Origin: Candidatus Altimarinota bacterium | GTDB taxonomy: Bacteria; Patescibacteriota; Gracilibacteria; CAIRYL01 | Assembly: GCA_965250085.1 (NCBI GenBank) | Contig: OZ252287.1 | Span: forward strand, 256,001 to 320,000 | DNA length: 64,000 bases | Direction of reading: 5' to 3' | In this document: positions 2,507 through 53,511 of the stretch, piece by piece | Layout of the letters: every line of letters begins with the position of its first letter | Position numbering within the stretch: the first letter of the stretch is position 1 | Notes under the pieces: model-generated | Seen by the model: only the letters and a program-made list of their open reading frames with translations | Told to the model about the DNA's origin: nothing | Database searches by the model: none | Position numbers and translations under genes: made by a program

Positions 2507-5500
2507 ATGAAAAAAATTATCAACCTCTCCCTCCTCTGCGTTTTTTTGTTGGGAAATTCGCTCTCTGCTTCAGCACTCAGTGATATTGGCAACCATAGAT
2601 ACCAGAGAGCCATCAGTCATATGGCAAATGAAGGAATTATCAATGGATATCCAGATGATACATTTCAGCCGGAAAAAACGGTCAACCGTGCGGAAATGGT
2701 AAAAATCATGGTGGGAGCCAAAGGTGTCACCCCTGCTGTTTCAGAATATCATGATTGCTTTCCCGATGTGCGCAGAGAGTGGTTTGCTCCCTACATCTGT
2801 TATGCAAAAGCTCAAGGATGGATCATAGGATATTACGATGCAACATTTCGTCCGGACCAAACCATAAATTTTGCAGAGGCTTCCAAGATTTTTTCCGAGG
2901 TATTTGAGCTTCCCGATGTTTCGTATACGACACACACTTCAGAAGCATGGTACATCTCTTATGTTCTTCGACTCATAGAGCAAAATGCTGTCCCGCCCAC
3001 TATACAAGGTTTCCAGGGTTCTCTTCGCAGAGGAGAAACGGCAGAAACCATGTATCGACTCATGGAGAACATACTCTCTTCAGATTCTCTGAGTTATTCA
3101 GATTTGGAGATACGATCTGGTATAGGGCTCGAATACCTCAGACTTCAGGAACTCTTGCAAGAAACGCAACAGCTTTCTCAAGAACACAGTTCTCGAAATC
3201 CTATTTTACAAACCCAGGAAACCATGCTCCTTCATAAACTTGGTATGCTCGAATCACGATATTCCAGAACACTTGCGGATAATGGTCTTTCTGTAGAGCT
3301 CTCAGGAGGATTTTCATCCGATTCACGCGGTTTTAGTGATATGCGACTCCTGACCGGTGAGCGAGCGATTGATGAGAGCTTGCAGTTGGGGTCTATTGGA
3401 TCAGATAGGTCTGACGGAAGTGATCAAACATCTGCAGATATTCCGATTTCAGATATTACCTCGGTATCAATCCCCTCTCATCCTTGGGATGAAATGTTGC
3501 AGGGAAAAACATTCTCCGTTCCTGCCATTGCAAAGCTCGCACCAAAAGACATGCTGTTTGTGCATATACAAAATGCTCAAGATTTCCTGGAGCTGGAAGA
3601 TACCATGATCTCTCTTTCCAAAGCATTTGGAGATCTGTACACCTTTGGACACATGGCTGAGCTGCGGCCAAAGATGCTACGGCGGCTGGGAATACCAAAT
3701 ATGGATACATTTGTGAGTCAGATAGATGAAGGAGGGTTTGTCAGTGCCGATCTTTCTTTTACGCCCCGCACCGACTATGCCTTGATATTAAAATTCAAAA
3801 GTACAACCGCTCAATCAGCATTTACAGCACTCTTGGGAAGTAGCACTCTTTCTGAAACCATTCAGGGATACACCGTCGTTGCTACCAATGCATCAGTGCT
3901 GGAAGAAATACAAAATGCAACCAAGAGCACCTCACTTTCCCTCTCTACGCAAAAAGATTTTCACTTTGCCCTTTCCTCGGTTGAGCCTAATAGAGATGGC
4001 ATGGTGTATCTTTCTGATGCATTTATCCGCAAACTCACTGGACCCGAATATCGCATCAATGCCCGACGGAGAAATACTGCTCTGAGCACTCTGAAGATGC
4101 TTCAATATGCTTCCTTTGCCTATCATCGCATTACCGGATCATGGCCAGATTCATTAGAGCACATGCGGAATGAACGATATATATCTCTGGATACCGTTTC
4201 TGAAGTTGCCAAGTACTCTGTTGATGCTCAGGGCAGAGTGCATCACTTGGATTGGGGAACTGTTTGGGAGGTCACGCCTGTGGGTCAGGTAGAGATTCCT
4301 ACTGTCTCAGAAACGGAAAAAGATCTTTATGAGCGATTTTTGAATGAATATCAGGGATACTTTCAGGAATTCTTTGATCCCGTTGTCATTGCCTTTGATA
4401 TTGACGAAGAGATTACCTTTCATACCGTTATCCTTCCGCTTATCGAAAATAGTCAGTACAACTGGCTCAAAATATTTACCGGGGGCATGACTTCCGAGCT
4501 TTCATTTATCAGTGACCCAGATAGAGCAGGAGATGTGTATTTTGCCTCCCACTTTGCCATTGATGATCTGCTGGCAGAATTGGGAGAACAATTTCTCTTT
4601 TCCCAGCCTAAAGAGGACAGCACACTTTCGGAGGAAGAATTTATTGAAATAGTGGAACAGGAAATCGCTGAGGAATTTGATATTGATCTTCAGCCCGGAG
4701 AACGGCTTCTGGACTTTATAGGAGATGAGATTTTGGTGGGAATCAATGCCGAGAGTTTTCAATCTAATGATGCAGAAAATATCGATGCATGGCTGGGGAT
4801 CAAAGTAACGGATCAGGAAAAAGCGCACATGTTTTTTGGGAAAATTCACGAGACTTTGTCTTCATCTCCTCAAAGCTCACAAGATGCTGTGCGAATATCT
4901 GACATCTCTACCCTACGCCTCGCTACTCAAATCTACTATGCCGATACTGCCACATATCCCGCAGATTTCTCCCCACTGGAAGGAGCATATATTGCCTCCA
5001 TACCCACTGATCCCGAAACAAATGAGCCGTATCTCTATGAGCTTCCTTCTGCTGACTGCTTCCGCATTACAACCCACCTGACCGCTCAAAACAATGCACA
5101 GCGGATGAAGGACGATGGAGGAGTGGATCCCAATCTGTATGAAGTGGGAACTCTTACGGACACCTGCAATCCCCTCTTTTCTGTTACCGATCCGGCGCAA
5201 TATGAGGCAGAAGCTCCTACTCCGCCTGAAATCCCAAAAAACGAATACAAAGGCACAGAATACTTTGTCCTCTCCTTCTACGAAGATGTGTACTATACAT
5301 TTTTAGACGACACGCTCTATATGACCCTCTCCAAACAAGCTCTTTTGAAAGTTATTGATGGATATCTGTCCCCCGAAAGCTCTTTCTCCGCCCATGTGCA
5401 AACACATATAGATAATATTGGATCTGGGCAGAGTATTGCTTTTCTTTTTGATTTGATAGCTCTTTCCAATACTCGATCAAGTTCGGGAGAATATATATTC

Positions 5501-5902
5501 GCTCCCAGCAAATGGAAATCTTTTCGTGATATTGAAAATAAAACAACATACCTGAGTGAAGCACTGACCCTTGCGGAAAATCTGCCCAATTTTGATGGAA
5601 CCCTCTCCAATAGCACCTCATATTATCGCTATGCTCCCAAAACTGTCTTTGGTGCAGAATTTGCAGTGCGCGATGGCAACATATTCCTCAGTGGCAATGG
5701 ACAAGAAGTAAATCTTTCCTCTTTAGGAATATCATTTTTTAGTGAAGAAGCAGATCTGATATATGAGACGATACTAGATCTTGAAAGCATTTCTGAGAAT
5801 ATGAAGGCTCAGTTGCAGGCTCTCAAAGGATTTGCTGTTGGACTTATGTTCACAGAAGAAGGAGTAGATATCAAAATATCTTTTGGAAGCCCAAAACAGT
5901 AA
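2507..5902 (+). CDS. Large secreted SLH-domain protein with internal pseudopilin-like domain
   Basis: Signal peptide; SLH repeats (GYPDDTFQPEKTVNRAE); internal DAVRISDISTLRLATQIYY..YP..IPTDP segment. Confidence 0.7.
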   Translation: MKKIINLSLLCVFLLGNSLSASALSDIGNHRYQRAISHMANEGIINGYPDDTFQPEKTVNRAEMVKIMVGAKGVTPAVSEYHDCFPDVRREWFAPYICYAKAQGWIIGYYDATFRPDQTINFAEASKIFSEVFELPDVSYTTHTSEAWYISYVLRLIEQNAVPPTIQGFQGSLRRGETAETMYRLMENILSSDSLSYSDLEIRSGIGLEYLRLQELLQETQQLSQEHSSRNPILQTQETMLLHKLGMLESRYSRTLADNGLSVELSGGFSSDSRGFSDMRLLTGERAIDESLQLGSIGSDRSDGSDQTSADIPISDITSVSIPSHPWDEMLQGKTFSVPAIAKLAPKDMLFVHIQNAQDFLELEDTMISLSKAFGDLYTFGHMAELRPKMLRRLGIPNMDTFVSQIDEGGFVSADLSFTPRTDYALILKFKSTTAQSAFTALLGSSTLSETIQGYTVVATNASVLEEIQNATKSTSLSLSTQKDFHFALSSVEPNRDGMVYLSDAFIRKLTGPEYRINARRRNTALSTLKMLQYASFAYHRITGSWPDSLEHMRNERYISLDTVSEVAKYSVDAQGRVHHLDWGTVWEVTPVGQVEIPTVSETEKDLYERFLNEYQGYFQEFFDPVVIAFDIDEEITFHTVILPLIENSQYNWLKIFTGGMTSELSFISDPDRAGDVYFASHFAIDDLLAELGEQFLFSQPKEDSTLSEEEFIEIVEQEIAEEFDIDLQPGERLLDFIGDEILVGINAESFQSNDAENIDAWLGIKVTDQEKAHMFFGKIHETLSSSPQSSQDAVRISDISTLRLATQIYYADTATYPADFSPLEGAYIASIPTDPETNEPYLYELPSADCFRITTHLTAQNNAQRMKDDGGVDPNLYEVGTLTDTCNPLFSVTDPAQYEAEAPTPPEIPKNEYKGTEYFVLSFYEDVYYTFLDDTLYMTLSKQALLKVIDGYLSPESSFSAHVQTHIDNIGSGQSIAFLFDLIALSNTRSSSGEYIFAPSKWKSFRDIENKTTYLSEALTLAENLPNFDGTLSNSTSYYRYAPKTVFGAEFAVRDGNIFLSGNGQEVNLSSLGISFFSEEADLIYETILDLESISENMKAQLQALKGFAVGLMFTEEGVDIKISFGSPKQ

Positions 5903-5944: not shown

Positions 5945-5973
5945 TTGATTTCTCTATACGAAATCGATACTAT
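5945..5973 (+). promoter_or_regulatory. Sigma70-type promoter for the tRNA-Gly locus
   Basis: TTGATT-17-TACTAT ending 15 nt upstream of the first tRNA-like copy. Confidence 0.6.
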
Positions 5974-5988
5974 TTCCAGCGCTTTTGA

Positions 5989-6055
5989 GCGAGTATAGTA
6001 CAGTGGCTAGTACACGACCTTGTCCCGCACTGCGGGATTGAGACATGGGTTTGAT
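5989..6055 (+). pseudogene. Degenerate tRNA-Gly copy with palindrome replacing the anticodon
   Basis: 5989-6022 identical to 6354-6387; then tcccgcactgcggga instead of ccatgg; then ttgagacatgggtttgat vs ttgagacacgggttcgat; no 3' acceptor strand. Confidence 0.85.
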
Positions 6056-6074
6056 GATTTGTTTCTAGTTTAAT

Positions 6075-6350
6075 ATGAGTTATTCGGTATACATACTCCA
6101 GAGCAAGACAATCGGAAGAAGATATATAGGATATACTGAGGATGTAGAGAAGCGATTAGAACAACACAATTTAGGACTCAATACTTCAACCAGAAATTAC
6201 GGACCATGGAAAATAATCTATTTAGAAAAAGGATTTGAAACAAGGCAGAAAGCACTAAAAAGAGAAAAAGAAATCAAAAAGATGAAAGGTGGTATTCAAT
6301 TAAAAGATCTTTTACATCAATACTCTTCGAAGATAAAAAACTCACGATGA
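6075..6350 (+). CDS. Stand-alone GIY-YIG nuclease (UPF0213/SLX1-like)
   Basis: YSVYIL...YIGYT...RLEQHN...ALKREKEIK. Confidence 0.9.
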   Translation: MSYSVYILQSKTIGRRYIGYTEDVEKRLEQHNLGLNTSTRNYGPWKIIYLEKGFETRQKALKREKEIKKMKGGIQLKDLLHQYSSKIKNSR

Positions 6351-6353
6351 TAT

Positions 6354-6428
6354 GCGAGTATAGTACAGTGGCTAGTACACGACCTTGCCATGGTTGAGAC
6401 ACGGGTTCGATTCCCGTTACTCGCTCCA
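6354..6428 (+). tRNA. tRNA-Gly (GCC)
   Basis: Acceptor GCGAGTA/TACTCGC; anticodon arm cgacc-ttGCCat-ggttg; GGTTCGATTCC T-arm; encoded CCA. Confidence 0.95.
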
Positions 6429-38156: not shown

Positions 38157-38218
38157 TCCCCCTTGAAAAGGGGGACCAAGGGGGTTAAAGCCCACCTAGC
38201 CTCCCTTTGCAAGGGAGG
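38157..38218. repeat. CCCC/GGGG-family palindromic repeat doublet
   Basis: tcccccttgaaaagggggaccaagggggtt and cctagcctccctttgcaagggagg. Confidence 0.75.
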
Positions 38219-53443: not shown

Positions 53444-53511
53444 ATCCCCCTTTGATAAAGGGGGAGATTTTATTTTTCCCCTCTTTGATAAAGAGGGGCT
53501 AGGGGAGATTT
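53444..53511. repeat. CCCC/GGGG-family palindromic repeat doublet
   Basis: tccccctttgataaagggggaga and tcccctctttgataaagaggggctaggggagattt. Confidence 0.8.

Follow-up and report, generated by a model that had tools for sequence, protein, structure and literature searches.

The Ssn proteins are single-domain GIY-YIG nucleases that go together with NTS/SRM hairpin repeats, SRM standing for Ssn-related motif (Chenal et al. 2025, PMC11893778). SsnA of Neisseria meningitidis, a protein of 94 aa, cuts single-stranded DNA only, beside the NTS hairpin CGTCATTCCCGCGMAVGCGGGAATCYRG; Ssn homologs are bordered by related SRM hairpins, and in Neisseria natural transformation is modulated by SsnA/NTS (PMC11893778). 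The word tRNA has 0 occurrences in the main text of that report, and the matches in its supplement text are unrelated. Here we analyse a stretch of 64,000 nucleotides of Candidatus Altimarinota bacterium (assembly GCA_965250085.1, contig OZ252287.1, positions 256,001 to 320,000 of the forward strand), hereafter the window; the 1.37 Mb single-contig genome that contains it is referred to as G000. At the tRNA-Gly(GCC) gene of the window, a unit of 365 bp combines a 91-aa GIY-YIG gene, a GC-rich palindrome and a duplicated part of the tRNA. We propose, with a probability of about 0.6, that this unit is a tRNA-nested, Ssn-like nuclease-plus-hairpin selfish cassette.

Elements of the IS200/IS605 and REP/RAYT types rely on HUH tyrosine transposases, which are guided by hairpins, act on single-stranded DNA and both cut and join. 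They resemble the window unit in being tiny, in pairing one enzyme gene with hairpins of single-stranded DNA and in having gene-less hairpin derivatives that multiply; they differ in their joining activity, where a GIY-YIG enzyme needs host repair or recombination, and in not being known to be nested in tRNA genes. Group I introns with homing endonuclease genes sit in the anticodon loops of bacterial tRNAs, and share with the window unit an anticodon-loop insertion that carries an endonuclease gene and leaves tRNA function intact; in contrast, no ribozyme was detected here, and function is kept via partial duplication, not via splicing. The RtT repeats at tyrT of E. coli are short, lie next to a tRNA gene and each end in a partial tRNA copy, and we know of no nuclease gene or conserved GC palindrome associated with them. 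Seg enzymes are bigger proteins that bind double-stranded sites through a DNA-binding domain, whereas the window protein, with 91 aa, is essentially the catalytic domain alone. Among them, SegB is a free-standing GIY-YIG homing endonuclease of the tRNA gene cluster of phages T4/T6, which cuts tRNA-gene DNA, is preferentially inherited with its flanks and has been tied to amplification of the tRNA region (PMC2330249, PMC13096335). Like the window nuclease it is encoded among tRNA genes, but it is not known to come with a hairpin-bearing partial tRNA copy, and it is a phage gene while ours is chromosomal. The Discussion of the Ssn report itself draws the comparison with IS200/IS605 and REP/RAYT (PMC11893778).

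An earlier note on the window, made from its letters alone, had described a 34-nt repeat, a palindrome, a decayed 3' arm, a 91-aa open reading frame (ORF) and a tRNA starting 3 nt past its stop codon; all these coordinates, and the observation as described, were confirmed (Table 1). The two copies of tRNA bases 1-34 are spaced 365 nt apart and are the only two matches of this 34-mer in the whole genome (E 1.7e-11). The palindrome stands in for CCATGG, which corresponds to tRNA bases 35-40 (6388-6393 in the intact tRNA), and it is the centroid hairpin when either strand is folded as single-stranded DNA. The remnant that comes after it spans the end of the anticodon stem, the variable loop, the 5' strand of the T stem and part of the T loop, within which the similarity to the tRNA stops (past 6055). 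The intact gene is the sole tRNA-Gly(GCC) gene that ARAGORN finds in the genome, while the partial copy yields no tRNA call by ARAGORN, nor by Rfam at E up to 10. The promoter announced in the earlier note stood in part: the two hexamers and their 17-nt spacer are present and agree with the consensus at 8/12 positions, while the consensus scan, with its threshold of 9/12, does not list them; we regard the site as a putative promoter. Finally, the unit has no recombinase of its own, as had been claimed, and the truncated integrase nearby sits outside the repeats.

Table 1. Positions of the features at and around the tRNA-Gly(GCC) cassette; numbers refer to the window unless a genome coordinate is given.
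Feature	Position	Strand	Remarks
Promoter-like site TTGATT / 17-nt spacer / TACTAT	5945..5973	+	ahead of the partial tRNA copy; read by eye
Partial tRNA-Gly(GCC) copy, bases 1-34	5989..6022	+	identical 34/34 to 6354-6387; acceptor 5' strand, D arm, anticodon stem 5' strand, loop to G34
15-nt perfect palindrome TCCCGCA-C-TGCGGGA	6023..6037	n/a	hairpin resembling the Ssn-related motif
Remnant of tRNA bases 41-58	6038..6055	+	16/18 bases as in 6394-6411
Gene of the 91-aa single-domain GIY-YIG nuclease (predicted)	6075..6350	+	stop codon included; Pfam PF01541
Intact tRNA-Gly(GCC)	6354..6428	+	ARAGORN; Rfam tRNA, 66.4 bits, E 3.7e-14
Large serine integrase remnant, 406 aa	6417-7637	minus	Recombinase and Zn_ribbon_recom domains, phrog_95
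Second full cassette, at tRNA-Pro(TGG)	G000:C1:541100-541580	minus	outside the window

The 91-aa protein matches the Pfam GIY-YIG family over residues 3-70 (E 1.4e-15). Residues Y6, Y17, G19, R27, H31, E64 and K68 are invariant or nearly so across 106 homologs, and the catalytic residues of the superfamily (Y6, Y17, R27, H31, E64) are all found in the window protein; nuclease activity and substrate are predictions. No extra domain was found past the 70-residue catalytic core, such as the additional DNA-binding domain with which SegB-type homing endonucleases read a long double-stranded site, and the protein has the single-domain build of the Ssn nucleases (about 90-100 aa, no DNA-binding domain). 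By sequence, the closest solved structures are UPF0213 BH0048 (1zg2, E 2.4e-7) and EF2693 (1ywl, E 4.1e-5), while the SLX1 nuclease domain matches at E about 1e-3; these proteins are like the window protein in size and catalytic motifs. The titles of the BH0048 and EF2693 entries give no function and a tRNA or hairpin context is not recorded for them, and SLX1 differs in being a eukaryotic structure-specific nuclease with a partner subunit. PADLOC returned weak matches only (E 7e-4 to 2e-3), one of them to a 'homing endonuclease' model, and there was no match in PHROGs and NCBIfam.

With the window protein as query (E <= 1e-5), homologs were found in 38 of 61 genomes of the class, G000 included, and the other 23 had none. 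The 105 matches and one own-genome paralog at E 4e-4 make up 106 loci, each of which was inspected 700 nt to either side; as some tandem copies share flanks, these loci are not fully independent. A tRNA lies within 700 nt in 61/106 loci, within 100 nt in 38 and within 50 nt in 34, and the tRNAs involved are of 31 kinds. The nearest one is co-oriented with the ORF in 59 of the 61 loci, and so are 71/74 of all tRNAs seen. Among the first 35 loci examined, 26 bear a tRNA and 20 of these 26 also show a partial tRNA copy across the ORF, which is the 5' part if the intact tRNA is downstream of the ORF and the 3' part if it is upstream. The latter, mirrored layout occurs in 22 of 49 tRNA-adjacent loci. 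The intact tRNA is always retained, with the ORF running in its direction; besides, there are two-unit tandem arrays (L013, L017, L026, L028) and gene-less repeats (L020, L025). Beyond the class, a search with the single window protein as query gave 30 loci in Moraniibacteriota, Paceibacterota, Saccharibacteria, Bacteroidota, Ignavibacteriales and several proteobacterial bins. Again, a tRNA was present within 700 nt in 21 of them and all tRNAs were co-oriented (24/24), with partial tRNA copies in 14/30 loci and TCCCG...CGGGA hairpins in 12.

The arrangement is also repeated within G000, which has six GIY-YIG paralogs. At tRNA-Pro(TGG), a partial 5' copy matching 24/25 aligned bases carries TCCGCCTTAGGCGGA in place of the inner anticodon arm, and a nuclease 41% identical to the window protein is encoded between this copy and the intact tRNA. 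Downstream of the same tRNA there is a further decayed tRNA-Pro-like piece, which has an imperfect palindrome and ends with the last 12 bases of the tRNA. A gene-less relic upstream of tRNA-Leu(GAG) consists of the first 16 tRNA bases and TCCGCCTAAGGCGGA, with no ORF, and another GIY-YIG paralog comes after tRNA-Leu(CAG), with TCCCGCTTTGCGGGA in between. In the own genome, 9 of 20 perfect TCC(G/C)-type hairpins are within 320 nt of a tRNA gene, as against about 2% of the genome, this hairpin class having been defined post hoc, with the data already seen. The earlier note had proposed to test whether homologs lie between an intact tRNA and a partial one with a palindrome; such flanks were indeed found, and the claim of a minimal recurring unit was borne out in the same genome, in relatives and in other phyla.

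Such recurrence speaks against two other accounts of the locus. Adjacent copies of which the first is truncated could come from a one-off tandem duplication of the tRNA, followed by random decay of the first copy, with an unrelated gene between; since the three-part layout recurs across tRNAs, hosts and phyla with a conserved palindrome at the break, this account is refuted and its probability is practically nil. The second account starts from the serine integrase, whose ORF overlaps the 3' end of tRNA-Gly by 12 nt on the opposite strand: the partial copy might then be an att duplication left by an integrative element of tRNA-Gly, with the integrase as its remnant. However, the repeats do not enclose the integrase, which is found beyond the tRNA, and its N-terminal catalytic part is missing (of a profile with 651 positions it matches only 255-559); what is duplicated is the 5' end of the tRNA, which brackets only the 0.33-kb nuclease unit, and the layout recurs at dozens of tRNAs without integrases. 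We hold an integration scar to be extremely unlikely, and the integrase is probably what remains of a different element that had integrated at this tRNA.

The mirrored layouts bear on a further proposal of the earlier note, namely base pairing between the 5' partial copy and the downstream tRNA's 3' half, by which the ORF would be looped out in the manner of an anticodon-loop intron; in a variant, nuclease expression would be tied to the maturation of the tRNA, with the pseudo-tRNA as the signal for processing. The ORF directly adjoins the tRNA (3 nt here; within 50 nt in 34/106 loci) and has the same orientation, which makes co-transcription likely, and the minimum-energy fold of 5989-6428 pairs the first acceptor strand with the last. 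This fold is nevertheless no better than those of shuffled sequences (z -0.25; 35/100 fold equally well). Besides, the downstream 'exon' is a complete tRNA, for which splicing would be superfluous; neither an intron nor any other RNA family was matched at E up to 10, and the mirrored layouts (22/49) and gene-less arrays do not fit an intron. In agreement with this, SsnA-type enzymes are reported to be inactive on RNA (PMC11893778). The looping proposal found no support in these results, and an RNA device of either kind appears very unlikely.

The palindrome is a feature of the family and not of the window locus alone. A perfect hairpin was found within 150 nt in 31 of the 49 loci with an adjacent co-oriented tRNA, and in 30 of these 31 the ORF separates it from the intact tRNA. 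There are 30 loci in which tRNA-derived sequence borders immediately on a perfect GC-rich hairpin; in most of them the tRNA sequence breaks off around position 25-29 to the left of the hairpin and starts again around 43-45 to its right (about 27-43 being replaced), and therefore the hairpin occupies the place of the anticodon arm, while in the Phe and Ser lineages it lies in the D region instead. Hairpin density is 0.84 per kb at the loci and 0.23 per kb in the own genome, a rough comparison given that other genomes may differ in composition. A conserved oriented flank beside the tRNA-nested hairpins was sought in order to tell the recognised strand; the flanks turned out to be tRNA-derived. 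Most likely, the hairpin that the nuclease recognises on single-stranded DNA is its own cassette's palindrome: the earlier suggestion that it serves as a recognition mark fits the published Ssn nuclease/hairpin pairs, with which the core TCCCGC...GCGGGA of the NTS is common (PMC11893778).

The strict SRM pattern HGTCWYN(0-2)YYVSBRHN(0-5)WNVSBRGN(0-2)RNCYNB, taken from PMC11893778, was run over the 106 loci and gave 11 matches in 7 loci, as compared to a mean of 0.5 loci in 20 shuffles. All 7 loci belong to one clade of 23 proteins (SH-aLRT 99), in which none (0/23) has a tRNA within 700 nt, while 61/83 of the remaining proteins do. In three loci, L089 (G047), L088 (G032) and L107 (G029), hairpins that are letter-for-letter the Neisseria NTS consensus flank canonical Ssn-type genes. 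The window cassette is like the Ssn systems in several respects: the enzyme has about 90 aa and a GIY-YIG domain only, its gene is bordered by a GC-rich palindrome with the NTS core, nuclease type and hairpin type co-vary, and canonical NTS-type motifs flank a sister clade within the same genome group. Unlike them, its hairpin has no oriented GTCAT-type flank, and the cassette sits inside a tRNA gene, the hairpin standing where the anticodon arm would be. On the antisense strand the palindrome is preceded by GTCTCAA, which is like the start of the SRM yet equally just the variable region of the tRNA. The window protein matches the proteins of the canonical clade at E 1e-7 to 1e-5, about equal to its match with UPF0213 BH0048.

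In a tree of the 106 proteins, built on 80 alignment columns and with many forks unresolved, the proteins cluster by neighbouring tRNA and not by host. Groups specific to one tRNA were recovered for Asn (4 rows from 3 families, support 97), Phe (3 rows, 95), Ser(GGA) (98), Pro(GGG) (98), Pro(TGG) (81) and Gly(GCC) (81). The tRNA label requires 27 changes on the tree (minimum 23; 35-41 in 500 shuffles) and the hairpin-type label 34 (minimum 30; shuffles 39-45), while the host-family label requires 30 (minimum 12; shuffles 29-37), related sequences being able to beat shuffles unaided.

Presence at tRNA-Gly(GCC) is patchy. This tRNA was found in 22 relatives, and a cassette with the ORF in one of them (G032, from another family, with a protein 56% identical), which makes 2/23 genomes with G000 included. 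In G004, a member of the window's family, a diverged partial copy has the 15-nt palindrome unchanged and at the same 34|41 junction, after which come a 28-nt spacer and an intact tRNA-Gly, with no ORF. Three further genomes of this family (G001, G005, G007) have a clean tRNA-Gly, a candidate for the empty single-tRNA allele that the earlier note had proposed to look for; the flanking genes are not conserved. A presence/absence polymorphism of the homing type at this tRNA would comprise the ORF in 2/23 genomes, one gene-less relic and three clean same-family genes. In a global alignment with the window, the pseudo-tRNA and hairpin of the G004 relic align well, while its spacer and the ORF leader do not align convincingly; therefore we claim neither a loss of the ORF in G004 nor a gain in G000. 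In both genomes the pseudo-copy, on both sides of the hairpin, carries the tRNA variant of its own genome, which suggests that the copies underwent gene conversion or else arose from resident sequence.

These patterns have to be weighed against a host-serving, domesticated module, in which nuclease and hairpins would be vertically inherited parts of tRNA loci that might limit or steer recombination or transformation there, or favour a local increase in the number of tRNA genes; partial copies would then be by-products of nuclease-induced repair and not traces of transposition. SsnA/NTS does modulate natural transformation (PMC11893778), and a role in driving segmental amplification is reported for SegB, the GIY-YIG enzyme from the tRNA clusters of phages (PMC13096335). 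Identity between homologs of one tRNA-specific clade is no higher than about 40-56%, common descent fits the finding of the same hairpin and junction in two genera that belong to one family, and no heterogeneity was seen at the level of reads. On the other hand, the distribution is patchy (ORF at tRNA-Gly(GCC) in 2/23 genomes, no homolog in 23/61), the protein tree tracks tRNA identity with host family near random, and the gene-less relics and tandem arrays resemble decay and proliferation. On balance we consider a host-serving role unlikely.

The reading that we favour, a selfish cassette, has as its parts a stand-alone GIY-YIG gene for about 90 aa, a GC-rich palindrome and a stretch duplicated from the host's tRNA gene. 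Beside the ORF, which is co-oriented and probably co-transcribed with it, a complete tRNA is kept, and the displaced partial copy holds the hairpin at the former anticodon arm. The nuclease would nick hairpin-bearing or tRNA-gene single-stranded DNA, after which repair or recombination would copy the cassette, with the conserved tRNA sequence as homology arms. Such a spread would account for re-insertion into the regenerated tRNA (arrays), for gene-less derivatives and for occupation of the same tRNA species in unrelated hosts. In a simple model, the unit 6023-6387 (hairpin, leader, ORF and tRNA bases 1-34) would have been inserted after G34, so that arrays would arise in which every unit ends with the 5' part of the tRNA, as in L020 and L026. 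The anatomy and its recurrence, the link between nuclease, hairpin and tRNA, the intact catalytic residues, the patchy presence and the tandem and gene-less forms are observed; from these we infer mobility and mechanism.

Several results speak against a selfish cassette or restrict its likeness to the Ssn systems. No mobility event was seen. A GIY-YIG nuclease cuts and cannot ligate or join DNA, and therefore host functions would be needed. The simple model alone does not explain why the fragment after the hairpin tracks the resident tRNA, and pseudo-copies with the variant of their own genome do not fit a simple, fixed fragment borne by an element. No orthologous empty site with conserved flanks could be defined among the tRNA-Gly loci of the relatives, because the proteins flanking the window locus (the S-layer homology protein upstream and the integrase remnant) are unmatched there. 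Reads were available as DNA contigs of four runs from at most two samples, one of which covers the locus at 99% of sampled words; in that sample the contigs break at the 34-nt repeat, whose unitig has about 2x the depth of its neighbours, and neither a joint across the cassette nor a depth deficit was found (the cassette unitig equals the upstream flank), which for this one sample is compatible with both the presence and the absence of rare empty alleles. Among the 49 tRNA-adjacent loci, 18 have no perfect GC hairpin by the criterion used, and 22 of the 83 loci outside the canonical clade have no tRNA within 700 nt, 8 of these 22 being masked or cut off by the end of a contig. Identity to the closest homolog is no more than 56%, and old vertical descent with many losses may also have shaped the pattern, kin not being independent. 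With regard to Ssn, the window locus fails the strict SRM pattern, its palindrome shares only the NTS core, and its protein falls outside the canonical-motif clade (99% support). Therefore the cassette is best described as a putative member of a tRNA-nested sister radiation of the canonical Ssn/hairpin systems, and strict Ssn (cd10448) membership is not claimed.

A farther-reaching claim, which we put forward tentatively and hold to be rather doubtful, is that these units form an undescribed class of minimal mobile elements, made of a hairpin-specific nuclease for single-stranded DNA and its hairpin, with a tRNA gene as portable homology arms. Such elements would home to the same tRNA species across families and even phyla, which would be possible because tRNA sequences are nearly universal, and they would rebuild the tRNA every time, with hairpin-capped dead copies remaining. 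The position of the hairpin at the site of the anticodon arm suggests that the enzyme reads the cloverleaf of the tRNA gene in single-stranded DNA, a structure-guided form of targeting.

Both the Ssn family and the free-standing GIY-YIG genes that phages carry in their tRNA clusters are already known, while no account of tRNA-nested GIY-YIG/hairpin cassettes was found in the literature, subscription journals being outside the search. A very small selfish element would apparently live in tRNA genes, the tRNA gene not being destroyed. If true, it would be among the smallest self-propagating DNA units, with about 0.3-0.4 kb and one enzyme of 90 residues, and it would represent a new selfish occupation of an essential gene, without intron or intein, the gene being rebuilt by partial duplication. 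It would also mean that the recently described Ssn-type nucleases have a natural role in bacteria other than Neisseria, account for many of the odd 'tRNA-like fragments' and pseudo-tRNAs of Bacteroidota and of bacteria with small genomes, and offer natural nuclease/hairpin pairs with defined targets for single-stranded DNA tools.

Directly upstream of the locus, on the plus strand (window 2507-5902), is the gene of a secreted-looking protein of 1131 aa with N-terminal S-layer homology repeats, which has no counterpart at the tRNA-Gly loci of the relatives. A second hairpin class, TCCCCCTT...AAGGGGGA, is present in the window at 38157-38175, 38202-38216 and 53445-53465 and at about 30 further sites genome-wide; these hairpins are abundant, often paired and terminator-like, with no enrichment near tRNAs. 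Homologs of the nuclease in G047 and G060, of the same class, contain several in-frame TGA codons, which suggests a recoded stop codon there. Three other paralogs of G000 (G000:C1:940114-940293, 612470-612727 and 432937-433075) have in common a different leader, in which a tRNA-like ...CCACCA end is followed by TTCGACTC, a hairpin and later the inverted GAGTCGAATGAC; read on the opposite strand, this resembles the way the published NTS motif starts (GTCATTC), the loop being very long. Finally, the 3' part of tRNA-Thr(CGU) has two 34-nt copies (91% identical) distant from the gene, at G000:C1:333616-333649 and 612193-612226, one of which lies about 500 nt upstream of a GIY-YIG paralog.

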